Assembly: GCA_965242685.1 (NCBI GenBank)
Contig: OZ251487.1
Location: 417,199 to 481,198 of the forward strand
Length of the DNA stretch: 64,000 nucleotides
Direction: 5' to 3'
DNA from: Gammaproteobacteria bacterium
GTDB lineage: Bacteria > Pseudomonadota > Gammaproteobacteria > UBA4575
Part shown: positions 10,032 through 38,225 of the stretch, in pieces
How positions within the stretch are numbered: the first letter of the stretch is position 1
How the letters are laid out: each line of letters begins with the position of its first letter
Translations under genes and position numbers: made by a program
The notes under the pieces: model-generated
Told to the model about the DNA's origin: nothing
The model's database searches: none
The model's input: the letters and a program-made list of their open reading frames with translations, nothing else

Positions 10032-10973
10032 GTGCCCGGCTCAGACATGAAGGTTGCGGGTAAATTCAGCCTGGATGAGCAGGTGGTGCTTTTTCATGGA
10101 AGCTGCCTTGACCTGTTGCAGGACATGCCGGATAAGTCCATGCAATTAATTATCACGTCTCCCCCTTATAACATAGGAAAAGAATATGAAAAAAGGCTGG
10201 ATATCGAGACTTACGTCAAGCAGCAGGAGGAAGTGATAAAAGGTTGTGTCCGTGTCCTTGCCGACACAGGGAGTATCTGTTGGCAGGTCGGAAATTATGT
10301 AAAAAATGCAGCGATAATTCCTCTTGATACGATCTTATATCCGATATTTCGTGATCTGAACCTTGTGATGAGGAACAGAATTGTTTGGGGCTTCGAACAT
10401 GGATTGCATTGTAGTAGAAGATTTTCCGGTCGTTACGAAACCATTATCTGGTTTACAAAGCAGACGGGAGAATATGTATTCAATCTTGACTCGGTACGAG
10501 TGCCACAGAAATATCCCGCTAAAAAATACTTCAAAGGGCCTAAGGCGGGGCAGTATTCCTGTAACCCTCTTGGTAAAAACCCGGGCGACGTTTGGGACAT
10601 TCCCAATGTCAAAAGTAATCATGTAGAGAAAACGGAGCATCCGTGTCAATTTCCTGTAGAGTTGATTGAGCGACTTGTCCTATCAATGACGAATGAAGGG
10701 GATTGGGTGTTTGACCCATTTCTTGGAGTGGGCACCTCTATCATCGCGGCGGTGAGGCACGATAGAAAGGCCGTGGGGTCGGAGGCAGTAAAAAAGTATG
10801 TTGATATAGCTCGAGATAGGATACAAAAAGCAATCGATGGAACACTGCCGACAAGACCGATGAATAAGCCGAAATATGACCCGAAATATGATCCTAATCT
10901 GCATAAAAATAGCCTGACCGTATCCCCATGGAAAAAAAAGAAAGGAGATATTGAACAGTTAAAGCTGGTTTAA
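10032..10973 (+). CDS. Beta-class N4/N6 DNA methyltransferase (DNA methylase N-4/N-6 domain), apparently orphan
   Basis: 313 aa; motif IV IITSPPYNIGKEY precedes motif I FDPFLGVGTS (beta-class order); AT-rich relative to neighbours; no adjacent endonuclease ORF. Confidence 0.8.
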   Translation: MPGSDMKVAGKFSLDEQVVLFHGSCLDLLQDMPDKSMQLIITSPPYNIGKEYEKRLDIETYVKQQEEVIKGCVRVLADTGSICWQVGNYVKNAAIIPLDTILYPIFRDLNLVMRNRIVWGFEHGLHCSRRFSGRYETIIWFTKQTGEYVFNLDSVRVPQKYPAKKYFKGPKAGQYSCNPLGKNPGDVWDIPNVKSNHVEKTEHPCQFPVELIERLVLSMTNEGDWVFDPFLGVGTSIIAAVRHDRKAVGSEAVKKYVDIARDRIQKAIDGTLPTRPMNKPKYDPKYDPNLHKNSLTVSPWKKKKGDIEQLKLV

Positions 10974-22667: not shown

Positions 22668-22985
22668 TGCCCATACCGCTTTCTATCGTCTGTAAATACA
22701 AACACAAAATTATAGCATAGCCCGCACCGCAGTATTTTTTTGTTCTTGCGGATAAGTCGAAAAAATTGAAGTCGGTAAGCAAAATTGACACCGAAAAATT
22801 TTGACGTTTTCGCGTCACGCTTTGCCTGTTTTCTTGATACGCCCGCCTACCTCCCCATCAAACGGCTACACGTAACCTCATCCGTTGCCCGTGCAACATC
22901 CTTTTAAGGTTTGTGCCGGTCCCAAACTCGCGTAACCACTGCCGTGCCAGATCCGGGCAGTAGATCACCCCTCTCATAAGGAATA

Positions 22986-23079
22986 GCCCCTTCATTGGGG
23001 GTGATCTCCAAACACATCAAATATCGCATTGCGCACAACGTCGGGTGTAGTCCCCCTTCATTGGGGGTGATCTCCAAAC
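22986..23079 (+). CRISPR. Minimal CRISPR array: two 28-nt direct repeats (27/28 identical) flanking one 38-nt spacer
   Basis: Repeat 1 at 22986-23013 is gccccttcattgggggtgatctccaaac. Repeat 2 at 23052-23079 is cccccttcattgggggtgatctccaaac. Spacer at 23014-23051 is acatcaaatatcgcattgcgcacaacgtcgggtgtagt. The repeat has a CCCC-loop-GGGG hairpin and an AAAC 3' end like Cas13a direct repeats. The array lies 35 nt beyond the stop of the Cas13-like gene. Confidence 0.6.
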
Positions 23080-23114: not shown

Positions 23115-26100
23115 CTATCTTTTCCTTTGTGAAGGATTGTGCTTGTGTATATGACTCTTCCTCCGGTTTTGGTATTTTCTTTTTTGTGTTCCCTCAGCTT
23201 TTCCTCTGTTCTGATTTTTTCTGCCTGGAGTTTTATCGGGCAATTGAGCCTCGCCACCGAACAGATCGGCTACCATCTCGATGTACTTTTCACCGTGCAG
23301 GTCTTCTTTGACTTTATTGCCCAAGTGAGTGGCTTGCCTGGTCTTAACTGTTGCTCCTGTAAGTCGGTGTCCTTTCATCTCCCATTCCAGGACAAGTCCT
23401 TCGCGTGCCAGCATTTCCTTGATTGACCGGGTCACCGCGTTTTTCAGTTTGCGGTCGTAGGCCATCAGCTTGCGGGTGTCGTTGACGGCCTCGGTCAGGT
23501 TCAGGTCGGGTTTGTTGCTTTGCAACATGTTGAAGTGCATCAGCTTGTTGCGAATGGAGCGGGGATAGTCTTCACATCTATCATCCAGAAAATGTTTACC
23601 AAATACCTGTTTTAATTGTTCGAAAATCTTTTTTGCATCTCCTTTTTGCGATTTTCTAAGTGTATTGATCGCCTCAACAATTTGGCCATCCTTGAGATTC
23701 TTACGTCCATTTGAATTGAACACGTCATCCGGCCTTTTCCCTGAAAGGCTTATCAGCGCGAGCATTACAAAATACAGGTCGCGTTCCCACAGGCCGGCAT
23801 AGTCGGTCAGCCGTCCCAATACCCGCATTAGCAGGCGATGCAGACGCACGTGGTTGTTGAGACGGACGTGTGCCGCAAAATGCCGATGCTTTTCTATAGT
23901 TTTAAGTGTTTGGCGATAGTCTTTTTCTTTTTCTTTGGAAAATCTCTTTTTAACCCATTCATCATGCAATTTTTCCCGTTTTTTCTGTTGTTCGGCAATT
24001 TTATTTTCCGATTCGTCCGATTCGTCCAGCTTAAGCTTATTCACGTTTTCGGCTGTAATCGGGTGTTTCCGGAAAATTGGCATCAATGGTTTGAGGTCGC
24101 CGAACCGCCAGAGCTCCCGCAGGCCGCGCCAGGGTACCAGCTGTTTTTTTGTATTTGTATCCGATTCGGGGCAGGCACGGCGAAAAAGCTCCTCGGACTT
24201 GAACAGGTCTTTGAGTTCGCTGTCATAAATATTGATTGTCTCGTTCCCCTCAAACTTGGCGTCGTGCATATCGAGATAAAGACTGAATAGTTGTGCGAGG
24301 GGCTTGACCACCTCATCTTTCTCATCTTTGATAGATGATTTCCGTACAAGGATCGACCATTTGGAAAGCTGGTGCCGTAATTGGGCAATCGCATCGACGG
24401 GCACCAGATGAATGAGGAAGTAAAGAACGGCCTGCCAGTCTATTGCTTTGGTTTCATCTGGTGGTACTTTCTTCAGTGCTTTATCCAGAGAGCCGCACTC
24501 GTTTTTAAGCTCGTCCGTTACCCAGTTTAATTGGTTCTCTTTCAGGTAAGCCTTGAAGGCCTGTGCCACCACGTCGCACCGCAGGTCATCGAGGTATTTG
24601 GCCTGCTGGCGGGCCTTGTCAGCGTCGCTATCGTAGCCACGCTGCACGCGCAGTTCGGACGCTGTGCGAGCGGCAAGTTGATCGATGAAATCGGCAATCC
24701 CTTGGCCTTCTTCCAGGTGGACCTGGTCGGTAGCCTTGGCGACGGCAAGTTCGTCCTTATTTAATTTCTTTGCATCCTCAGTAGCGCGCTTCACGGCACG
24801 TTTAATCCATTGATTCAGGGCTTGTTTCGTTTGTTTTTCCAGCCATGCGGGGAAAGCGCGTTCGTATATTGCCTTTGCAGTGACGTACCGACACAGTTTG
24901 TCGGGCTGATCTTCAAGTTTGTCCCGCTTACCGGGCGGCGGCAGATGCAGGAGGTAAGGTTTCTTGCTCCAAGCGTTTTCCGCACGGGCGAGGACGCGAT
25001 TGAAGCGGGGCAACGGTGACAGCGATGTTTCTGCATTGACGATGGCCTTGATCAGCGCGTCGATCTTGCTTTGGTCGTAATACTTCTCAACCTGTGCCGC
25101 TTTAAGGTCTTTAATCAATTGTTCGTTGCGCTTGGTAAAATCGTGTTTCAGGAGTTTGTGTGTGGCGTCAATGGTGGCAGGGAAGTTGTTAAGGTTGTTG
25201 GTTAATGCCTCGATAAAGCGGTCACGTCCCTTGAAGTGAAACGCCGCGTGACGCAGTTCAGCCCACCCGTTCAGTGCCAGTTTCAGCACTTGATTTTTAA
25301 AGTCTTCATCACCCTTGAAGTAGTCATTCCGTTTGCCGAACAGGAGCGGCAGCTTCGGCAGCTTTTTTAGATAGGCCGATTCACAAAAATTCCCATCTGT
25401 TACTCCATCATTTTTGATATTGAGCAATATGTCCTCTTTAATGCGATTGTTCGGGTCTGCCCAGTCCTTCAACGTCCGTGCACCGAGCGCAATCGTATAA
25501 CGCCACACGCGCACGAAGGCCTCGTTGCGTTTGATTTCGGCTTGCCCTTCACTGGTTCGATAGTGGCTGTTTGTGATTGCCTCGGATTCGGGCCAGTGGT
25601 CGATGGCATGGCCGTTTTTGCCGGCTTCGTAATGGATGATTCTTCCCAGACGCACCAGGCCGTTGAGATCACGATTGCGCACCTTGTTTTTGACCAGTTG
25701 GAACAGTTTGTTCATGTCTTGCGGTAGAATGCGCGCCACGTTTTTCTTGTTATGTTTCTTAAGGATGCGGGTATAGGTATCCTTAATAGCGGCATGAAGC
25801 GCAAATAGTCTAGGATAGAGATCACGGGCTTCGGTAACGGCGAGCACTTCTCCGTCATCGCCTTTGAACAGCTCCCCATATTGCCCGTACAGAATCGGGG
25901 CAACATCGCGTACCGAGAACTTGCCTTTCTTACCTTCAGCCGCTCGATAAATCTGGCCTGCTACGTCACCGGCCTCTTTATATGCTTTTTCATCCTGGTC
26001 TGACCAGTCATATTCACCACCCGAAAATCCCGTCGGCAACGCCATTACGTTTTTGGTAATGCTTTCCGCCCTGGCCGCTATCAGCCCCTTACTCTTATTG

Positions 26101-26606
26101 GGTTGGCTAGGCTCTTTCCGATATTCTTTTTCATACAGGTGTTCGTATATCTTTCCCGCGATTTCTTCGGCCTCTTTGTCACCGATTTCGGCAGGTTTCT
26201 TGTCACCGACGAAGCGTCCATACCAACGGCCTTTTGGAGCTGGAGAATTCTTACAGTTTTCTTTCGGGTAAGGATGAATCTTTGACCACCACAACTTCCT
26301 GAGTTTTTCAAGCTCGTCGAAATTGTCCGCATTCTTTACCTTTAACAGACCGTTCTTTATCAAATAGCACCAGACGGCGTTACCGAGTGTCTCGCGCAGC
26401 TTGCGCTGTTCGGCGGAAGGTTTGCCGTTCCCACGGGGCTTGGCTGCGATCTTGTCAATGATGGATATCCATTGCTTAATGACGAGTTCAGGGTGTTCTT
26501 TTGCAAATTCTGCAACGTCCTTTGCATCCTTGTGGCCGGGATTTGGGCGGATTTTCCGTTTTCCTGTTGGGGTCTCGCTTCGACCGTATGGCTTGATAAT
26601 CAACAT
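23115..26606 (-). CDS. cas13a: Cas13a-like type VI CRISPR RNA-guided RNase (two HEPN R-x4-H motifs)
   Basis: 1163 aa. HEPN1 is ELRHAAFHF (R452/H457), encoded about 25236-25253. HEPN2 is SIRNKLMHF (R1019/H1024), encoded about 23535-23552. Size and motif spacing are close to LbuCas13a (1159 aa; R472/H477, R1048/H1053). The protein is Lys-rich and the gene AT-rich. A CRISPR-like mini-array is adjacent. Confidence 0.72.
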   Translation of the reverse strand: MLIIKPYGRSETPTGKRKIRPNPGHKDAKDVAEFAKEHPELVIKQWISIIDKIAAKPRGNGKPSAEQRKLRETLGNAVWCYLIKNGLLKVKNADNFDELEKLRKLWWSKIHPYPKENCKNSPAPKGRWYGRFVGDKKPAEIGDKEAEEIAGKIYEHLYEKEYRKEPSQPNKSKGLIAARAESITKNVMALPTGFSGGEYDWSDQDEKAYKEAGDVAGQIYRAAEGKKGKFSVRDVAPILYGQYGELFKGDDGEVLAVTEARDLYPRLFALHAAIKDTYTRILKKHNKKNVARILPQDMNKLFQLVKNKVRNRDLNGLVRLGRIIHYEAGKNGHAIDHWPESEAITNSHYRTSEGQAEIKRNEAFVRVWRYTIALGARTLKDWADPNNRIKEDILLNIKNDGVTDGNFCESAYLKKLPKLPLLFGKRNDYFKGDEDFKNQVLKLALNGWAELRHAAFHFKGRDRFIEALTNNLNNFPATIDATHKLLKHDFTKRNEQLIKDLKAAQVEKYYDQSKIDALIKAIVNAETSLSPLPRFNRVLARAENAWSKKPYLLHLPPPGKRDKLEDQPDKLCRYVTAKAIYERAFPAWLEKQTKQALNQWIKRAVKRATEDAKKLNKDELAVAKATDQVHLEEGQGIADFIDQLAARTASELRVQRGYDSDADKARQQAKYLDDLRCDVVAQAFKAYLKENQLNWVTDELKNECGSLDKALKKVPPDETKAIDWQAVLYFLIHLVPVDAIAQLRHQLSKWSILVRKSSIKDEKDEVVKPLAQLFSLYLDMHDAKFEGNETINIYDSELKDLFKSEELFRRACPESDTNTKKQLVPWRGLRELWRFGDLKPLMPIFRKHPITAENVNKLKLDESDESENKIAEQQKKREKLHDEWVKKRFSKEKEKDYRQTLKTIEKHRHFAAHVRLNNHVRLHRLLMRVLGRLTDYAGLWERDLYFVMLALISLSGKRPDDVFNSNGRKNLKDGQIVEAINTLRKSQKGDAKKIFEQLKQVFGKHFLDDRCEDYPRSIRNKLMHFNMLQSNKPDLNLTEAVNDTRKLMAYDRKLKNAVTRSIKEMLAREGLVLEWEMKGHRLTGATVKTRQATHLGNKVKEDLHGEKYIEMVADLFGGEAQLPDKTPGRKNQNRGKAEGTQKRKYQNRRKSHIHKHNPSQRKR

Positions 26607-26740
26607 ATGGTAATTATATACTAACTACGCTACAATATAAAAGCGTAATTTGCCGAGTAGACGGGTAGTGGAGAGATACCTGGACGGCAGTCATTTGAAA
26701 CTGACAGGTAAAAAATAATTATACGGGGGCACGTAACCCA

Positions 26741-27304
26741 ATGCGACAAGGTTTGTATCGAAGCATCGTGGTTGATCCGCCTTGGGATCAAGGCAAAACG
26801 GGGATTCGTTCCGCTCGTCCCAATCAGGGCGTTGATCTGGATTACCCTACGCTGACGCAAAACGAGATTTTAGAGATTGTTCGGCTGGATGAATGGGCTG
26901 CCGAGAATGCGTTTCTTTGGCTGTGGGCGACAAACAGCAGATCGCGCTCAAGCAAGAAGCCTATCCTTCAGCAGGCGTTTGAATTGATGGATGCTTGGGG
27001 GTTTCGATACTACACCATGCTTACATGGGATAAAAAAACCGGGCCTTGCCCATTCGGCCCTTATCAGATAACGACCGAACATTGTTTATTTGGCTATCGG
27101 GGGCAATGCAGGTTTGACAAACAATCTCTTGGCAAGATGAAAACCTGCTTTCATGCCCCCGTCACTCGGCACAGTGAAAAACCCGCGCTGTTTTACGATA
27201 ACGTCCGTAAATACTTTCCCTCCCCCAAGATTGACGTTTTTTCAAGAAGAACACATAGCGGCTTTGAAGGTTGGGGTTGGGAAGCCGAACAGGACGTTGC
27301 ATAG
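26741..27304 (+). CDS. MT-A70-family adenine N6-methyltransferase (DPPW motif)
   Basis: 187 aa; catalytic motif VVDPPWDQG near N-terminus; family size typical of small bacterial MT-A70 proteins; divergent from cas13a-like gene with 134-nt shared intergenic region. Confidence 0.8.
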   Translation: MRQGLYRSIVVDPPWDQGKTGIRSARPNQGVDLDYPTLTQNEILEIVRLDEWAAENAFLWLWATNSRSRSSKKPILQQAFELMDAWGFRYYTMLTWDKKTGPCPFGPYQITTEHCLFGYRGQCRFDKQSLGKMKTCFHAPVTRHSEKPALFYDNVRKYFPSPKIDVFSRRTHSGFEGWGWEAEQDVA

Positions 27305-30052: not shown

Positions 30053-32290
30053 ATGGATCTAACCGACCGCGACAAGCAAGAGATTATCCGTCATCTTGAG
30101 GCGGACCAACCGTTGCCCGACCGGTATCGGTTTTTACTGTTTGACGACAAGCGGCAGGCGGAATTGGTATGGAACGGCAAGACCAACGAAGTATGTAACG
30201 TAGTATTGCCGTTTCAAACCATAGAACACGTCGACGAGCCGCGTGTCGAGAGTCCCGATGATCTCCCTTTAATGGACGACCTATTCGCCGTAGACGCACG
30301 CGGCCGACAGCTAAAGGGCTGGGAAAACAAGCTGATATGGGGCGACAACAGGCTGGTACTGTCCAGTCTCAAGGGCGGCGCCTTACGCGAGGAAATTGAA
30401 AAGCAGGGCGGCATCAAGCTCATCTACATCGACCCGCCGTTTGATGTCGGGGCGGACTTTTCCATGGACATTGAAATCGGCGGCGGAAACTTCACCAAGG
30501 CGCCGAGCGTATTGGAGGAGATCGTCTATCGGGATACCTGGGGGCAAGGTGCGGACTCGTTCATCGCCATGTTGTACGAGCGGTTGATCTTGATGCGCGA
30601 CCTACTGGCCGAAGACGGGAGTATTTACGTCCACTGCGATTATAGGATGAACGGCTATATCCGCCTGGTGTTGGATGAAGTGTTTGGGAAGGGTGCGGGT
30701 GCTGGCTATGTAAATGAGATTGTTTGGCAGGGTGCGATTGGGGAGACATCATCTAAAAACAAAAAATTTATCAAGTCCCACGAAACCATTTATTTATACC
30801 GCAAAAGCGGAGTGCTGTGGAATGAGATATTTCAAACATATAGCGAGGCCAGCCAAAGTTTATATCGTTACTCCGATGACAAAGGGCGTTACCGAATCGG
30901 ACCGACAAATAAACCCGGTACGGGGGGCTATTTCTACGATTTAGGTTACGGGGAAATATGCCCGCAAAGGGGATATAGGATGCCGATTGAGACCGCTCTC
31001 GCTTGGATTGAAAGTGGTGAGTTGATTATTGAAAAAGGGAAAGTACCCGGACGTAAGTTGTATATGGGTGAGGGGGTCAGATGTCGTGACGTTTGGGTGG
31101 ATATAAGAGCGACGCAAGGCAATGAATATTTGCGTTACCCCACCCAAAAACCCGAAGCCCTGTTGGAACGGATCATCAAGGCATCCAGCAACGAGGGTGA
31201 TGTGGTGGCGGACTTCTTTTGCGGTTCGGGCACGTTGGCGGCGGTGGCGGAGAAGCTGGGGCGCAAATGGATCTGCGGAGACTTGGGCAAGTTTGCCGTA
31301 CACACGACCCGCAAGCGGATGATCGGCGTCCAGCGCCGGTTGAAGGCCGAGGGCAAGGACTATCGCGCCTTTGAAGTCCTGAATCTCGGCAAATATGAAC
31401 GACAGCACTACATCGGCGTCAATGCCGGCTTGCATGAAGCGGGGCGCGCGACCCAACAGACGGCGAAAGAACGTGCCTTTGTCGATCTAATTTTGCGCGC
31501 GTACAAGGCCGAGCGGGTAGACAATTTCTCATGCTTTCACGGTAAGAAACAGGGCAGGCTGGTGACCGTGGGGCCGGTTAACCTCCCAATATCCCGTCAG
31601 TTTGTCGAGGAGATCGTTCAAGAATGTAAGAAAAAACACATCACAAAGGTAGACCTGTTGGGTTTCGAGTTTGAGATGGGCCTGTTTCCGCAGCGATTGA
31701 ACGAGGCAAAAGAACAGGGCATCGACCTTGTACCCAAATACATCCCCCGCGATGTATTCGACAAACGCGCCGTGGAGAGAGACCAGGTAAGGTTCCACGA
31801 CGTGGCGTTTATCGAGATCAAAACCCACGTGAAGGACGGAACGGTAGCGGTGGAACTCACCGATTTCTCCGTCTACTACCATCAGGGTTCGGTAGAAAAT
31901 GCCGAACAAACCCTGAGAAACAGAGGCAGTAAAGTGGTGGTGAAAGCGGGGCGGGTGGTGAAGGTATCCAAGGATCAACACGGCGCGATCACCCGTGAGG
32001 TGCTGACGAAAAAGTGGACGGATTGGGTAGACTACTGGTCGGTGGACTTCGACTACGAAAGCAAACGGGAAATCATCCGCGAACGGAACCAGGCGGGCGA
32101 ATGGGTAGAACGATGGACGGGCGACTACGTGTTTGAAAACGAGTGGCAAAGCTTCCGCACCCGCCAAGATCGGTCGCTGGAATGGACCACGCCCCCGCAC
32201 AAATGCCCGCCGGGAAACTACAAGATCGCCGTCAAGGTGGTTGACGTATTCGGTAACGACACCATGACGGTGGCGGAGGTAAAGGTGTGA
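30053..32290 (+). CDS. mod: Type III restriction-modification system methyltransferase subunit (Mod), adenine-specific
   Basis: 745 aa; catalytic motif IV YIDPPFDVGADF followed by motif I FFCGSGTLAAVAEKLG (beta-class order typical of Type III Mod); variable target-recognition middle region. Confidence 0.85.
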   Translation: MDLTDRDKQEIIRHLEADQPLPDRYRFLLFDDKRQAELVWNGKTNEVCNVVLPFQTIEHVDEPRVESPDDLPLMDDLFAVDARGRQLKGWENKLIWGDNRLVLSSLKGGALREEIEKQGGIKLIYIDPPFDVGADFSMDIEIGGGNFTKAPSVLEEIVYRDTWGQGADSFIAMLYERLILMRDLLAEDGSIYVHCDYRMNGYIRLVLDEVFGKGAGAGYVNEIVWQGAIGETSSKNKKFIKSHETIYLYRKSGVLWNEIFQTYSEASQSLYRYSDDKGRYRIGPTNKPGTGGYFYDLGYGEICPQRGYRMPIETALAWIESGELIIEKGKVPGRKLYMGEGVRCRDVWVDIRATQGNEYLRYPTQKPEALLERIIKASSNEGDVVADFFCGSGTLAAVAEKLGRKWICGDLGKFAVHTTRKRMIGVQRRLKAEGKDYRAFEVLNLGKYERQHYIGVNAGLHEAGRATQQTAKERAFVDLILRAYKAERVDNFSCFHGKKQGRLVTVGPVNLPISRQFVEEIVQECKKKHITKVDLLGFEFEMGLFPQRLNEAKEQGIDLVPKYIPRDVFDKRAVERDQVRFHDVAFIEIKTHVKDGTVAVELTDFSVYYHQGSVENAEQTLRNRGSKVVVKAGRVVKVSKDQHGAITREVLTKKWTDWVDYWSVDFDYESKREIIRERNQAGEWVERWTGDYVFENEWQSFRTRQDRSLEWTTPPHKCPPGNYKIAVKVVDVFGNDTMTVAEVKV

Positions 32291-33576
32291 AAACAAACAC
32301 GATACAACAGATTGAAGAACAGGTAAATCAAGTGACAGAAGCCTTGAAGGGCTTTGTTCTTCGTCGGCATGAAGAGGATCGCTATGGCAAGGAAGATGAG
32401 TACACGGCTCAATCCTTGAAGGCTGATATAAAGGCAATCCTCACGGACATACGTGGCTTGGTAAAAGCGCATAACAAGTTCGTGAGGCTGTCGACTTTTG
32501 TAGAAAGAGATCTGATACGTGATTCTCTGCAAAATATGTCTAGTTCACTAAATTCAGAAAATTATTCTAATGCTGCCCATTATCTGGAAAAAATAAAGGA
32601 TATTATTCGCAGTTATAACGTAAGAGGTTCATCGGAATCTGAGGAAGTTCTTAAGGAGAGACTTGCTCAGATCAATAGTAAATATACGGACGCCGAAGAA
32701 AATATCGATGAGATCAAAAGGGTCAAAGAAACAGCCGAGCAACAGGCGCAGCAGCTTCAATCCATAAAAGAACAGCTTGAGTTCATTGACGGCAGAATTT
32801 ACGAGTCACGAGAAAAAGCCGATCAAATCGAAAAGTTGCAGACTCAATCTCAGAGTAATAGCGATGATATACATAGTGTCTTTACATCCGCAAAAAGTCG
32901 CGAAGAAATTATCAACAGCTTTGTTCAACGGGTTGAAGAGAGACAAAAACAGTTAGATACGCAGGAACAATCCACCGCTGCGTATCAAGAGAAGCTGGAG
33001 TCGTTTCAGGAAGCGCATGAAGAAAAACTTGAAGCAGCAGAGAAGCTGATAGAAGAGGCGCGGGCGGCTCTTGAACTTACGACTGCGGCAGGGGTCAGTG
33101 CGGCATTCACTGCACGCTACAATGAGGAAAAGGAAAGGGACCAGGAGATGTTGGATCGTTGGTTGAGAGGAGCACTTTTATTTATGAGCATCGCTATAGG
33201 AATGGGGATCTGGGTGGTATTGGGCAATAAGGATATCGGGCTTGGCCTGGCGATATCTCGCATAACCATTATACCGGTCGTACTTTCCGGTGCCTGGTTT
33301 TGTGCCGCACAATATGTGAGGTATCGGAACATACGAGAGGACTATGGCTATAAAGCCGTTTTGTCCAAGTCCATGATAGCTTTCATGGATCACTTGCCTG
33401 AAGATGTAAAAAGGGATTATCTGAATACGGTTCTGAAGGAAATCCACAAGAATCCTCTGCGTAAAAGATACGATGATTCAGATAGGAAAAATATTAGGAC
33501 ACCAGACGATGCGCGGGTAGGCACTTCCGGGTCATCAGATGATTCAGATAGAAAAAATACTGGGGCATCAGATTAA
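32287..33576 (+). CDS. Coiled-coil protein with two C-terminal transmembrane helices, inserted between mod and res (possible accessory defense/abortive-infection effector)
   Basis: 429 aa; about 280 aa heptad-rich charged N-region (EEQ.., KEQLEFIDGRIYESREKADQIEKLQ), then LLFMSIAIGMGIWVVLG and ITIIPVVLSGAWFCAAQYV hydrophobic helices; start overlaps mod stop (GTGTGA); C-terminal DDSDRKN motif duplicated. Confidence 0.6.
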   Translation: MKTNTIQQIEEQVNQVTEALKGFVLRRHEEDRYGKEDEYTAQSLKADIKAILTDIRGLVKAHNKFVRLSTFVERDLIRDSLQNMSSSLNSENYSNAAHYLEKIKDIIRSYNVRGSSESEEVLKERLAQINSKYTDAEENIDEIKRVKETAEQQAQQLQSIKEQLEFIDGRIYESREKADQIEKLQTQSQSNSDDIHSVFTSAKSREEIINSFVQRVEERQKQLDTQEQSTAAYQEKLESFQEAHEEKLEAAEKLIEEARAALELTTAAGVSAAFTARYNEEKERDQEMLDRWLRGALLFMSIAIGMGIWVVLGNKDIGLGLAISRITIIPVVLSGAWFCAAQYVRYRNIREDYGYKAVLSKSMIAFMDHLPEDVKRDYLNTVLKEIHKNPLRKRYDDSDRKNIRTPDDARVGTSGSSDDSDRKNTGASD

Positions 33577-33706
33577 TCCCTTTCTACCCATCAGTACCAG
33601 GACGTTGACTTATCGGCAGATAGAGGAAGTGGTAAAGAAACAAACCGATGATCCGATCATTTATGCAGGTATCCCGCCGGTCACCTTGCTAAAATAGTGT
33701 TTTCCG

Positions 33707-36376
33707 ATGGCGCTCCACCCCAAATTTCCTGATTCTCCCCACGCCGTTCTCGATCCTGAAGTTCGCTGGTTTCCCGCCGATGAGACGGTGCGCGAGCAGA
33801 CGATGGACAAGTTGATGCCGCCACTGGTGGCGGAACTGCGGCGCAAGGTAAAGGAATTTCGAGACGCCGGCTATGCGGGCGCAAGCAATACCGGCAGGAG
33901 CTTGTTGAATTGGTGGTTCAAGGAATCGCACCCACAGCCACAATCGGACGGCGGCACGACGGAGTTTCGGTATTACTTCGCCCAGCGCGAGGCTATGGAG
34001 ACCATCATTTATCTGTATGAGGTGGCCGGGGCGAAGGATAAGTTTGACTTGATGCGCTTCGATTCCATCGGGCTGGTATCCACCGGCATGTTTGACGAGA
34101 CCTGGCGGCGTTACGTGATCAAGATGGCGACCGGCACCGGCAAGACTAAGATCATGAGTTTGGTGTTGGCGTGGAGCTTCTTCCACAAACTGTACGAAGA
34201 AGGCTCAAGCCTGTCGCGCAATTTTCTGATGATTGCTCCGAACATCATCGTGTTGGACCGCCTCTACAAAGATTTTCAGGGTTTGCGGATCTTCTATGAT
34301 GATCCGGTGATGCCCGACAACGGCTATGGAGGACAAAACTGGCGGGATGACTTTCAGCTAACGTTGCATTTGCAGGACGAGGTACAGGTGACGCACCCCG
34401 TGGGAAACATCTTTTTGACTAATGTCCATCGGGTTTATTGCGGCGAGGATATCCCGCCTTCGCCGGGAGACGAGAACACGATGGATTATTTTCTCGGCAC
34501 TCGTCCCGTCGGTGCGACCACCGATTCTAAAATAGACTTGGGAATGATCGTGCGCGACATTGACGAGTTGATGATCCTAAACGATGAGGCGCACCATATC
34601 CACGACGCGAAGCTCGCCTGGTTCAAGTCGGTTGAAGACATCCATAACCGGCTGCTGCAAAAGGGCGGCGAGTTGAGCTTGCAGGTGGACGTGACCGCAA
34701 CGCCGAAACACAATAACGGCGCGATCTTTGTGCAAACGATAGCGGATTACCCGTTGGTGGAGGCGATCTCTCAGAACGTGGTCAAACATCCGGTGTTGCC
34801 GGATGCGCCAAGTCAGGCAAGGTTGGAGGAAAGACAGAGCACAAAATTCACCGAGAAATACGCCGATTATCTTGATTTGGGCGTGACTGAGTGGCGCAAG
34901 GCTTACGGTGAACATGAGAAGCTCGGCAAGAAAGCGATCCTGTTCGTGATGACGGATGACACGAAAAATTGTGATGAAGTTGCCGGGTATTTGGAGAGTC
35001 ACTATCCCGATTTGCAAGACGCGGTATTGACCATTCATACCAAGAACAACGGCGAGATTTCCGAAGTGTCTCACGGCAAGAAGAAAGAAGAGCTTGAGGA
35101 ACTTCGCAAACAGGCCAACGAGATTGATTCACTGAAGAATCCTTACAAGGCCATCGTGTCGGTGCTGATGCTCAAGGAGGGCTGGGACGTGCGCAACGTC
35201 ACTACTATCGTCGGCCTGCGGGCGTATTCGGCCAAGAGCAATATCCTACCGGAGCAGACGCTTGGCAGGGGGCTGCGCAAGATGTATCGGAATGACACTG
35301 AGGAGAAAGTGAGTGTGGTCGGTACCGATGCCTTCATGGAGTTTGTGGAAGGCATACAGGCGGAAGGGGTGGAACTGGAGCGCGAGGCTATGGGAGAAGG
35401 CACTAAGCCCAAGGCGCCGCTGGTGATAGAGGTTGATAGTGAAAAGGATCTGGATGCGCTGGATATTGAAATTCCGGTACTGACGCCTCGTTTATATCGG
35501 GAGTACAAAAACCTGGCCGATCTGAACCTTGAAACAATGGAGTTTAAAATGCTGGAATATCGGCAGTTTAACGAAGAACAGCAGCGCGAGATCGTCTTCA
35601 GGGACGTGACTACGGGCGAGGTGACGCATATCACCGTGCTGGACAGCGCGGGGGTGGGCGATTACCGCAGCGTCATCGGCTATTTTGCGCAGACCATGAT
35701 GAGGGAGCTACGACTGGTAAGTGGCTATGATGCTTTATACGGCAAGGTCAAGGCGTTTATTCGGGATCACCTGTTCGGCAAAACGGTTGCGCTGGAATCT
35801 GCCAATACGTTGAGAAATTTGTCGGAGATGGTAGCCACCAAGACGGTGCTTGAGACTTTCAAAAAGGCGATCAATCACCTGATGGTACGGGAAAGGGAGG
35901 GTGCGGAGATTCATGATTCCATCAAGCTACGCCAGATGCGCCCGTTCGTGATAAAAGAGCGACAGTATTTATCTCCCCGCAAGAGTGTATTTAACCGGAT
36001 TGTCGGCGACAGTCGGCTTGAACTGGAGTTTGCCAAGTTTTTGGAGCGATGCAATGACGTATCCGCGTATGCCAAAAATTATCTGGCGGTTCACTTCAAG
36101 CTGGATTACGTAAATGCGAGTGGCGAACTTACCAATTATTACCCTGATTTTGTCGTCAAGCTGACCGATGGCCGCATGGTCGTCGTCGAGACCAAAGGGC
36201 GCGAAGGACTGGACGTACCGCGAAAAGTGGCACGCTTGAGGCGGTGGTGTGAAGACGTCAACGCGGTGCAGGACGTGACATGGAGTTTCGTCTACGTGGA
36301 TGAGGAAGGGTTTCACAAGTATTCACCCAAGTCTTTCGCGGGACTTTTGGCCGGTTTTCGGGAGTATAAAGGGTGA
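33707..36376 (+). CDS. res: Type III restriction endonuclease subunit (Res), SF2 helicase plus PD-(D/E)xK nuclease
   Basis: 889 aa; helicase motif I MATGTGKTKIM, motif II LNDEAHHI (DEAH), motif VI region; C-terminal nuclease motif YPDFVVKLTDGRMVVVETKGRE. Confidence 0.85.
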   Translation: MALHPKFPDSPHAVLDPEVRWFPADETVREQTMDKLMPPLVAELRRKVKEFRDAGYAGASNTGRSLLNWWFKESHPQPQSDGGTTEFRYYFAQREAMETIIYLYEVAGAKDKFDLMRFDSIGLVSTGMFDETWRRYVIKMATGTGKTKIMSLVLAWSFFHKLYEEGSSLSRNFLMIAPNIIVLDRLYKDFQGLRIFYDDPVMPDNGYGGQNWRDDFQLTLHLQDEVQVTHPVGNIFLTNVHRVYCGEDIPPSPGDENTMDYFLGTRPVGATTDSKIDLGMIVRDIDELMILNDEAHHIHDAKLAWFKSVEDIHNRLLQKGGELSLQVDVTATPKHNNGAIFVQTIADYPLVEAISQNVVKHPVLPDAPSQARLEERQSTKFTEKYADYLDLGVTEWRKAYGEHEKLGKKAILFVMTDDTKNCDEVAGYLESHYPDLQDAVLTIHTKNNGEISEVSHGKKKEELEELRKQANEIDSLKNPYKAIVSVLMLKEGWDVRNVTTIVGLRAYSAKSNILPEQTLGRGLRKMYRNDTEEKVSVVGTDAFMEFVEGIQAEGVELEREAMGEGTKPKAPLVIEVDSEKDLDALDIEIPVLTPRLYREYKNLADLNLETMEFKMLEYRQFNEEQQREIVFRDVTTGEVTHITVLDSAGVGDYRSVIGYFAQTMMRELRLVSGYDALYGKVKAFIRDHLFGKTVALESANTLRNLSEMVATKTVLETFKKAINHLMVREREGAEIHDSIKLRQMRPFVIKERQYLSPRKSVFNRIVGDSRLELEFAKFLERCNDVSAYAKNYLAVHFKLDYVNASGELTNYYPDFVVKLTDGRMVVVETKGREGLDVPRKVARLRRWCEDVNAVQDVTWSFVYVDEEGFHKYSPKSFAGLLAGFREYKG

Positions 36377-36464: not shown

Positions 36465-37802
36465 ATGAATATCAAAAAACTGATCGTTGAGGATGTCCGC
36501 TGCTTTGCGGGCAGACAGGAACTTGAGATACGCCCCATCACTTTTCTAGTGGGTGAAAACAGTACCGGAAAGTCTACCGCCCTCGCTTGTTTGCAGACGC
36601 TGCTGGACATTATTAGTTTCCCGACTAATTTCCCGAGTAGGTTCCCGATTAGGTTCCCGTATGCCGACCTGGATTTCAATAATGAGCCTTATAATTTGGG
36701 GGCATTTGCCGATATTGTCAGGGTCTCAAGACCAAGGAAAGAGAGTTTTCGGTTGGGCGCTGAACTATTTCACGAGAAAGAAACTTTGGAATATTCTTTA
36801 ACTGTAACGGAAAGAGACGAAGGTTCTGAACCCATTATCCAGGAAATGAGGATGCTTTTTACCGATGGCAACGAAATTGTTCTCAAAAAAGATGATCGGC
36901 AAGTAAAAAATCAATCCAATAAAAGAAATTTTCAAATCCAGCATGTAGAAGGAGGTAAGAAAAAGTTTGTTATTATTCCACTAGGCTCACCTACTGTGAT
37001 GAGAGGTCTATTTATGGACTTATTTTATAGGGGATATAATGAGCAGGCTCTGACGTCAGAAGAAGAGGAACTACGTAATTTTTTGCAAAAGTACCGAACA
37101 GTACTTTCCTCTCGAAATTCTCCTAAGGCGCATAGTTTTGCACCGATTCGTTCCAAGCCGCAGCGTACGTATGACCCCATTAAAGAGGGTATCAGCCCTG
37201 AAGGCAGTGAAATGCCTATGGTGCTGATGAATATATCCGGAACGGGAGAGAAGCAATGGGGCACACTGAAAAAAAGACTGATCAGGTTTGGTAAATCTTC
37301 AGGCCTGTTTACGGATATCTATGTCAGAAAACTTGGAAAATCAAGCGACCCGTTCCAGCTACAGATCAAGGTCAGGGGGCCAAAGGTCAATCTTATAGAT
37401 GTGGGGTACGGCGTCAATCAAATCCTGCCTATTTTGGTACGTATATTTAACACTGAGAGAGAAGGTACAACTTTTTTAATGCAGCAACCGGAAGTGCATC
37501 TGCATCCCAAGGGTCAGGCGGAATTGTCTTCCCTATTGATCGAGATTGCTAAACAGCAGAAACAAAATTTTGTTATCGAGACGCACAGCGATTACATGGT
37601 TGACCGTGCGCGTATTGACATCAGGGACGGGAAAATACCGCCGGATGATGTCTCATTGATTTACTTTGAACCTTGCGGGGGATATGTCAAAGTGCACAAT
37701 ATCAAGTTTGATGAGCAGGGGAATTTAGAGGGTGCCCCGAACACCTTCCGACAGTTTTTTCTTGATGAGTCGGACAGATTTCTCGGGCTTGATGAAAGTT
37801 AG
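36465..37802 (+). CDS. AAA15/ABC-type ATPase (OLD/AbiEii-like ATP-binding protein)
   Basis: 445 aa; Walker A LVGENSTGKST; ABC-like Walker B/D-loop QQPEVHLHP and H-loop IIETHSDY; AT-rich. Confidence 0.8.
   Translation: MNIKKLIVEDVRCFAGRQELEIRPITFLVGENSTGKSTALACLQTLLDIISFPTNFPSRFPIRFPYADLDFNNEPYNLGAFADIVRVSRPRKESFRLGAELFHEKETLEYSLTVTERDEGSEPIIQEMRMLFTDGNEIVLKKDDRQVKNQSNKRNFQIQHVEGGKKKFVIIPLGSPTVMRGLFMDLFYRGYNEQALTSEEEELRNFLQKYRTVLSSRNSPKAHSFAPIRSKPQRTYDPIKEGISPEGSEMPMVLMNISGTGEKQWGTLKKRLIRFGKSSGLFTDIYVRKLGKSSDPFQLQIKVRGPKVNLIDVGYGVNQILPILVRIFNTEREGTTFLMQQPEVHLHPKGQAELSSLLIEIAKQQKQNFVIETHSDYMVDRARIDIRDGKIPPDDVSLIYFEPCGGYVKVHNIKFDEQGNLEGAPNTFRQFFLDESDRFLGLDES
36618..36665 (+). repeat. Tandem 12-nt repeat x4 inside ATPase gene (ttcccgactaat / ttcccgagtagg / ttcccgattagg / ttcccgtatgcc) encoding FPTN-FPSR-FPIR-FPYA
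   Basis: Directly visible in sequence; in-frame, preserves reading frame. Confidence 0.8.
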
Positions 37803-37805
37803 GCC

Positions 37806-38225
37806 ATGTGCATCATCCTGGATACCAACCTGTATGGAGCTTTTATTAATTCGAATAATGAAGACATGCAACCAGTGAGAGATTGGATGAATCGCAAAAA
37901 TGGAAAAATCGCTTATTCTCCGGTGGGGAAAATTGCGGAAGAACTAAAGGGGAAGATGAAGGGCAAGTTTGAGGTATATGAAAAGGCTGGAAAACTCAAA
38001 AGGTTTTCTAAGGAGGATGTAGAGCGAAAAAAAGAAGGATTGGAAGGTTTGATATCCGATGATCCGGATATCATAGCACTGGCTCAAGTCTCCAACGTTA
38101 AAGTATTGGTTTCAAGGGACAAAAAGTTACATAAAGATTTCACAAACACAAACATCATCGAGCAAGGAAAGATTTATCAAACGAAGAGGCATGAGCATCT
38201 TCTCAGAAAGGATACATGCCCGTAA
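37806..38225 (+). CDS. Small PIN-domain-like putative nuclease, translationally coupled to the upstream ATPase
   Basis: 139 aa; N-terminal ILDTN (first PIN acidic residue), SDDPDIIALAQ (PIN D-x-I-A motif), VLVSRDKKL (fourth acidic position); starts 4 nt after ATPase stop. Confidence 0.55.
   Translation: MCIILDTNLYGAFINSNNEDMQPVRDWMNRKNGKIAYSPVGKIAEELKGKMKGKFEVYEKAGKLKRFSKEDVERKKEGLEGLISDDPDIIALAQVSNVKVLVSRDKKLHKDFTNTNIIEQGKIYQTKRHEHLLRKDTCP

Follow-up and report, generated by a model that had tools for sequence, protein, structure and literature searches.

A divergent Cas13a beside a one-spacer array: a highly probable type VI-A CRISPR locus in a gammaproteobacterial contig

The described system that most closely resembles the locus reported here is that of Rhodobacter capsulatus, whose Cas13a (RcCas13a) has been demonstrated to be a ribonuclease (RNase) guided by CRISPR RNA (crRNA) (PMC8776769, PMC11089165). 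The catalytic tetrad of RcCas13a comprises R464/H469 and R1052/H1057, and three further residues, R1085, N1089 and H1113, are essential for pre-crRNA processing or modulate it (PMC8776769). The R. capsulatus system, equipped with a two-spacer array, arrests growth once the protospacer is expressed (PMC11089165). Here we analyse a cas13a-like gene and the short repeat array adjoining it in a 64,000-nucleotide (nt) stretch of DNA assigned to a gammaproteobacterium (GenBank assembly GCA_965242685.1, contig OZ251487.1, positions 417,199 to 481,198 of the forward strand). This whole stretch is referred to as the window, and all positions are given in its own numbering, with the features collected in Table 1. 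An initial annotation, made from the letters and a list of open reading frames (ORFs), had proposed an orphan Cas13a-like effector of 1163 amino acids (aa) at 23115..26606, and the reading frame is confirmed on the minus strand. We conclude with high confidence that we are dealing with a type VI-A cas13a and its own array.

Profile and sequence searches agree on the family assignment. The protein matches the NCBIfam equivalog NF038188 (cas13A_C2c2) with 813.4 bits against a cutoff of 150, residues 1-1116 covering positions 1-1192 of the 1192-position model, and Cas13a was the only family returned by the NCBIfam scan. All four PADLOC matches are Cas13a models, including PDLC02152 with an expectation value (E) of 7.9e-216. 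A phmmer search of the PDB yielded eight matches, all to Cas13a-type structures, with the solved crRNA complex of RcCas13a (7OS0 chain A) as the best (E 2.4e-103). The Cas13a-like call of the initial annotation is therefore upheld by a full-length match far above the cutoff, and no Abi/RloC or other HEPN family competed with Cas13a in the profile searches. A Pfam scan gave two sub-threshold matches only; the Pfam version used lacks the newer families PF28192 and PF28350, which precomputed database annotation places on all listed members of the Cas13a family, and therefore the miss is not evidence against Cas13a.

The predicted fold leads to the same assignment. An AlphaFold2 model built from a 30-sequence alignment (mean predicted local distance difference test score 77, predicted template modelling (TM) score 0.74) is nearly all helical, with a short beta-region at residues 1071-1102 and a disordered Lys/Arg-rich tail past residue 1125. 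Foldseek returned 14 PDB matches with E < 0.001, every one of them Cas13a. The model superposes best on RcCas13a (7OS0; TM 0.77-0.79 over about 1100 residues, which is essentially full length), and the Cas13a proteins of Listeria (Lse), Leptotrichia (Lbu, Lsh) and Lachnospiraceae (Lba) rank after it. Thus, neither of the two outcomes that had been named as contrary to a Cas13a identity, a non-Cas HEPN family or catalytic motifs lying outside HEPN folds, was observed. The other Cas13 subtypes (b, c and d) were considered and rejected, as NCBIfam and PADLOC gave Cas13a only and the best Foldseek match to Cas13d had E 1.8 and TM 0.15.

Residue conservation was assessed in an alignment of 30 homologues. 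The two R-x4-H motifs noted initially, RHAAFH at residues 452-457 and RNKLMH at residues 1019-1024, are found by translation exactly at these positions. The accompanying statement that the protein carries exactly two such motifs is incorrect, as we counted seven matches (at residues 20, 266, 280, 452, 908, 1019 and 1149). Approximately 2.4 are expected from the composition, and hence the number of matches alone does not prove anything. Among the seven, however, R and H are both invariant in the homologues only at 452 and 1019. R1019/H1024 align with R1052/H1057 of RcCas13a, as established by counting residues, and with the 'RNYIAH' motif of the Lbu protein. R452/H457 align with the R...H of the HEPN1 segment 'crnqtfh' in 7OS0; we take this pair, by its place in the alignment and not by residue count, to be the published R464/H469 (PMC8776769). 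The RHFAAH sequence at 908 has an invariant R908, and H913 is kept in at least 90% of the clade. H913 is replaced by Arg in RcCas13a, and R908/H913 correspond to Thr/Lys in the LbuCas13a alignment, so that RHFAAH, judged by its alignment, is not a catalytic HEPN motif.

The initial annotation had also raised the question of whether the crRNA-processing residues are conserved. They are: R1052, N1056 and H1080 of the window protein align with the RcCas13a triad R1085, N1089 and H1113, and each is kept in at least 90% of the homologues. It is therefore predicted that the protein possesses a separate pre-crRNA-processing site.

RcCas13a thus shares with the window protein the positions of both the HEPN tetrad and the processing triad (PMC8776769), and in both cases cas13a is followed directly, on its own strand, by a small array (PMC11089165). 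The differences are nevertheless considerable. The structural alignment shows no more than about 27% identity, and the deposited 7OS0 chain has 1304 aa, compared with 1163 aa here, including the disordered tail. The downstream array of R. capsulatus has two spacers instead of one, and its locus has a further array and also a cas1 close by (PMC11089165), neither of which was found within 20 kb of the window gene. LbuCas13a (5XWP/5XWY), used as the reference in the initial annotation, does resemble the window protein in length and in having two HEPN R-x4-H motifs at similar positions. The two proteins also have the same overall fold (Foldseek E 1e-17 to 2e-18) and share the HEPN2 region including YDRKLKN, which holds R1052 and N1056 (E 6e-20). 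However, RcCas13a is nearer, since the sequence similarity to LbuCas13a is limited to residues 823-1110, i.e. the C-terminal 290 residues or so, with TM 0.51-0.58 and 15-16% identity. LbuCas13a is a distant member of the subfamily and not the nearest to the window protein.

The array begins just past the cas13a stop codon. Two exact 27-nt direct repeats, at 22987-23013 and 23053-23079, are located 66 nt apart, and no match of this kind appeared in shuffled sequence. They belong to one complete repeat (DR1) and one terminal repeat (DR2), which enclose the single spacer. The array has the orientation of the gene, with the repeat 5' of the spacer. DR1 fits the 36-nt consensus of the related loci, GTTGnAGATCACCCCCAAATGAAGGGGGACTACACC, and forms a 5-bp stem capped by a 6-nt loop. 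The CRISPR-like mini-array of the initial annotation is accordingly a real array with a clade-typical repeat, although a minimal one. No further copy of the repeat occurs in the window, so that DR1 is the sole complete one. Beyond nt 27, DR2 has lost one stem pair and the ACTACACC flank.

Comparison with relatives strongly supports the repeat structure. Across 30 loci, all of the 150 stem cells are paired, and compensatory changes (C-G to U-A or G-C) are observed in four of the five pairs. The covariation score was reached by none of 500 shuffles, and every slid register scored worse. In detail, loop and 5' flank measure 6 and 12 nt in the window repeat, compared with 7 and 11 in the clade consensus. 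In approximately 55 of the 79 related loci, cas13a is directly followed by an array of like orientation, comprising 2-30 and mostly 4-30 repeats. The window array is minimal in comparison; L008, one of the relatives, is built likewise, with a single full repeat, a single spacer and a single degenerate repeat, and the terminal repeats of L008 and of a second relative (L002) are also degenerate at the 3' end.

An additional element is located just past DR2 at 22962-22971 on the minus strand, where GGGGTGATCT corresponds, in inverted orientation, to AGATCACCCC of the 5' repeat portion. Together with DR2, it may form a hairpin of 10-11 bp whose loop measures about 27 nt. Within the minimum free energy fold of the 123-nt array transcript, GGGGTGATCT pairs instead with the AGATCACCCC of DR1 (z = -2.0). 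The inverted segment may have been left behind by a rearrangement of the array, or it may be a structure at the transcript end.

The exact window protein is already present in NCBI/ENA. We found 277 homologues with E < 1e-5, the nearest being 54% identical, and the window protein therefore constitutes a distinct lineage within the clade. In species-representative genomes there are 79 related loci, mostly in Alphaproteobacteria, including Thalassospira, Rhodovulum, Parvibaculum and Bradyrhizobium. Three relatives are labelled Gammaproteobacteria or Thiothrix, namely Thiothrix fructosivorans and two Gammaproteobacteria metagenome-assembled genomes (MAGs). Others are found in MAGs labelled Binatia, Nitrospirales, Dehalococcoidia, Spirochaetaceae, Entotheonella and Poriferihabitaceae. 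The initial framing of the locus as a rarity does not agree with a clade of this size.

The closest relatives, with 42-54% full-length identity (loci L001-L062), are encoded in MAGs of several phyla, among them Binatia, Nitrospirales, Dehalococcoidia, Entotheonella, Poriferihabitaceae and Alpha- and Gammaproteobacteria. They share with the window essentially the same 36-nt repeat consensus, an array immediately 3' of the gene and the absence of conserved accessory genes. The MAG labels seem to be typical of sponge microbiomes, and the occurrence of such symbiont-type labels in several phyla suggests that a self-contained cas13a-plus-array cassette has frequently been transferred horizontally across phyla. 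A full-text literature search on sponges, symbionts and Cas13a returned no paper on cross-phylum spread of such a cassette. A search of viral contigs gave four Cas13a relatives, at least two of which coincide in length and match coordinates with bacterial contigs (L083 = L046 and L084 = L059), and these four provide no evidence for a phage-borne cassette.

We also clustered the 1309 flanking ORFs of the 79 loci. Apart from Cas13a and spurious ORFs reading through the arrays, no family is present in more than eight loci, and no accessory gene is conserved across the flanks. What recurs there, in 4-8 loci in each case, are restriction-modification (RM) components and toxin-antitoxin genes. Type I hsdS/hsdM adjoin cas13a in 6-8 related loci. 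An Eco57I-like type IIG RM gene (about 1200 aa) lies on the opposite strand downstream of the array in five; it immediately follows the array in L002, L020 and L051 and is about 2-3 kb more distant in L005 and L007.

The composition of the gene agrees in part with what had been noted initially. The protein is Lys-rich, with 12.0% Lys against a median of 5.1% in the 32 other ORFs of the window. The gene is AT-rich to a modest extent only, its guanine-plus-cytosine (GC) content being 49.1% against a median of 52.9% for the window ORFs. The N-terminus MLIIKPYGRS is kept across the Cas13a clade, and the annotated start codon is therefore probably right. Upstream of the gene, TTTATA/TATAAT is the sole promoter-like site, and no Shine-Dalgarno sequence is visible ahead of the ATG. 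The short distance between the promoter-like site and the ATG, together with the lack of a visible Shine-Dalgarno sequence, hints at a leaderless cas13a mRNA.

To search for adaptation genes, we scanned a greedy set of ORFs of at least 70 aa, extending over approximately 2.7-46.9 kb, for Cas1 and Cas2 with Pfam, NCBIfam and PADLOC. Neither was detected among the ORFs scanned within 20 kb on either side, a set from which two short ORFs (72 and 75 aa) were left out, and with this proviso the initial remark on the absence of cas1 and cas2 is correct. Among the same ORFs there is likewise no linked adaptation module, be it cas1 with cas2 or a reverse transcriptase-cas1 fusion (RT-cas1). Type VI loci are usually without cas1/cas2, which are not a defining feature (PMC6753606), so that a term such as orphan describes the usual state. 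With its lone spacer, and with cas1/cas2 not detected within 20 kb, the locus would have a single fixed specificity, unless it is served by an adaptation module from another part of the genome.

Table 1. Features of the cas13a locus and its surroundings in the 64-kb window (positions in window numbering).
Feature	Position	Strand	Basis
cas13a coding sequence, 1163 aa, stop codon included	23115..26606	(-)	ORF; NCBIfam, PADLOC, PDB and Foldseek matches
HEPN1 catalytic motif, R452-HAAF-H457	25236..25253	(-)	Translates to RHAAFH; invariant in 30 homologues
HEPN2 catalytic motif, R1019-NKLM-H1024	23535..23552	(-)	Translates to RNKLMH; invariant in 30 homologues
Predicted pre-crRNA-processing residues R1052, N1056, H1080; motif YDRKLKN...KGH	23367..23453	(-)	Translation and alignment to RcCas13a
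Complete 36-nt repeat DR1, GTTTGGAGATCACCCCCAATGAAGGGGGACTACACC	23044..23079	(-)	35 nt past the cas13a stop; fits the clade consensus
Single 30-nt spacer, CGACGTTGTGCGCAATGCGATATTTGATGT	23014..23043	(-)	Between the two repeat copies
Terminal repeat DR2; first 27 nt (22987-23013) as in DR1, then degenerate, GGGGCTATTCC for GGGGGACTACACC	22978..23013	(-)	
Promoter-like site, TTTATA-17 nt-TATAAT, ending 6 nt before the ATG	26613..26641	(-)	Consensus match only
Terminator-like hairpin and T-run, possible end of a cas13a-array transcript	22802..22817	(-)	Consensus match, inference
MT-A70 family (DPPW) methyltransferase, 187 aa, divergent from cas13a	26741..27304	(+)	Pfam MT-A70 E 3e-19; PADLOC type II methyltransferase E 5e-32
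Type III RM system, 3.4 kb from cas13a: mod 30053-32290, coiled-coil ORF 32287-33576, res 33707-36376	30053..36376	(+)	
Low-GC pair, 445-aa AAA_15/AAA_21 ATPase and 139-aa ORF	36465-38225	(+)	PADLOC PDC-M55A E 5e-44, NsnB E 2e-42, AriA E 1e-24

On the upstream side of cas13a, the first gene encodes the MT-A70 methyltransferase. Its GC content (49.5%) is close to that of cas13a, and no homologue occurs in the flanks of the 79 related loci. The gene was possibly co-inserted with cas13a and is not a conserved partner. Beyond it lie, in order, a nucleoside-transporter-like gene, a gene for a solute-binding protein, the type III RM system and the ATPase pair. The RM genes match N6_N4_Mtase and ResIII in Pfam and MTase_III (E 7e-111) and REase_III (E 7e-21) in PADLOC. 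The additional coiled-coil ORF between mod and res (429 aa, GC 43.6%) has weak matches to the SMC-like LmuB and PbeC. In the last pair, the ORF after the ATPase is Lys-rich with 39.5% GC and has no family match; the two genes look like a candidate two-gene defence system adjoining the RM genes. The other side of cas13a is occupied by housekeeping-type genes. The initial description of the region as a defence island therefore applies to the MT-A70, RM and ATPase genes, but has to be qualified by the two intervening transporter-type genes and by the housekeeping-type genes on the opposite side.

Several observations concern the wider window. An N6/N4 DNA methyltransferase gene at 10032-10973 on the plus strand (GC 44.4%) is apparently solitary among housekeeping genes, and homologues with 56-66% identity flank two of the Cas13a relatives (L037 and L055). 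No ribosomal RNA was found in the 64 kb. The MreB encoded in the window is 67% identical to that of E. coli, which is compatible with Gammaproteobacteria and not diagnostic. A divergent mreBCD/gatCAB arrangement, as present here, is typical of Beta- and Gammaproteobacteria. A 7.8-kb contig from the sequencing run SRR17504027 (L080) encodes an identical MreB and has the same order of amidase, gatC, mreB, mreC and mreD, suggesting that the same or a very close organism was sequenced there.

From the family membership, the fold, the conservation of catalytic and processing residues and the identity and structure of the repeat, we infer how the locus might be expressed, how its RNA might be processed, how the RNase might act on a target and how it might cooperate with RM. 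The gene and the array would be transcribed together, or a weak AT-rich promoter, located in the 35 nt between stop codon and array, might drive the array. Cas13a would then bind the sole complete repeat by its stem-loop and ACUACACC 3' flank, and R1052, N1056 and H1080 would cut the precursor a few nt 5' of the stem, leaving Cas13a with a crRNA composed of the repeat handle and the 30-nt spacer. Pairing of a complementary transcript with the spacer would bring the HEPN domains together (R452/H457 and R1019/H1024), and the composite site would cleave the target as well as bystander RNAs, thereby arresting the infected cell. Such target-activated cis and collateral RNase activity is presumed by analogy with the homologous RcCas13a, in which it was demonstrated (PMC8776769, PMC11089165).

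The nearby type III RM system, which cuts DNA, could subsequently clear the invader DNA and allow the cell to recover, by analogy with Listeria. Type VI and RM systems co-occur in Listeria genomes, and cleavage of phage DNA by RM lets the cells recover from Cas13-induced dormancy, so that the two act in synergy (bioRxiv 10.1101/2022.07.05.498905).

Some of our results weigh against this model of a working system. The search for a spacer target revealed no protospacer in any set searched: there was no exact match in IMG/VR, none for the 24-mer spacer core in JGI metagenomes, and only chance-level matches in GenBank phages (blastn; best 20/21 nt, E 0.6) and in the related loci that were fetched. 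As neither the conserved 3' flank nor one of the stem pairs is present in DR2, the 3' end of the spacer may not be processed by Cas13a. The promoter- and terminator-like sites around cas13a are no commoner than in shuffled sequence and represent weak hints only. As two transporter-type genes separate the RM genes from cas13a, a functional link between them is circumstantial only. Finally, a one-spacer array without adaptation genes may indicate a system in decay.

The last point leads to the main alternative, namely that the locus is a decaying relic with an intact effector, whose array has shrunk to one spacer and a damaged terminal repeat, which no longer confers useful immunity and is in the course of being lost. 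The window indeed contains only one complete repeat, where related loci usually have 4-30; however, L008 is equally minimal, and the R. capsulatus system functions with a two-spacer array (PMC11089165). Damage to DR2 would fit decay, but the relatives ordinarily have terminal repeats with a degenerate 3' end. The absence of cas1/cas2 among the scanned ORFs points in the same direction and is nonetheless typical of type VI (PMC6753606). The target that was not detected in IMG/VR, GenBank phages or JGI metagenomes, and the inverted partial repeat copy past DR2, which may be a rearrangement scar, would also fit a relic. Against this, the 3.5-kb ORF is unbroken and all catalytic and processing residues are kept. 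We therefore regard a relic as unlikely. The locus is best explained as a type VI-A system that works, or did so recently, with one fixed specificity, and the system is probably active at present.

It is also conceivable that the lone fixed spacer is aimed at an RNA transcribed from the host's own genome or from a resident element, with Cas13a serving as a regulator or dormancy switch and not in antiviral immunity. No external target was found in the three collections named above, but most CRISPR spacers have no database match anyway. The search for a self-match gave no second site in the window with up to three mismatches, being confined to these 64 kb of a contig that measures at least 1.83 Mb. 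Stress and stationary phase both induce cas13a in R. capsulatus, yet the same study saw no stress phenotype of cas13a (PMC11089165). This possibility seems very improbable. Broader speculation, in which the spacer targets a host or mobile-element transcript so that Cas13a is a programmable dormancy or regulatory switch, or in which the adjacent MT-A70 enzyme modifies RNA and tunes Cas13a, is less probable still, neither variant being positively supported.

A non-CRISPR HEPN toxin or Abi/RloC-like RNase that resembles Cas13a in length and motif spacing by chance can be dismissed almost entirely: R-x4-H motifs are common, as the excess over expectation in this very protein illustrates, and the Pfam scan gave no Cas13a match, but the latter is a matter of library version, and such an identity is refuted by the full-length match to the Cas13a equivalog far over its cutoff, by PDB and Foldseek matches confined to solved Cas13a structures and by the clade-typical CRISPR repeat directly downstream.

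Taken as a type VI-A system, the locus is ordinary and genuine, and does not challenge the current understanding of such systems. It demonstrates that a Cas13a can be recognized from the motif spacing and a two-repeat array without any tools. The presence of RM genes near cas13a, here and in relatives, fits the published pairing of Cas13 dormancy with DNA-cutting defences. For the family, the window protein is a further divergent member, with no more than 54% identity to any other protein, in a large clade that is mostly uncharacterized and of which RcCas13a is the sole studied representative, and this clade could supply new RNA-targeting enzymes with a well-defined 36-nt repeat.

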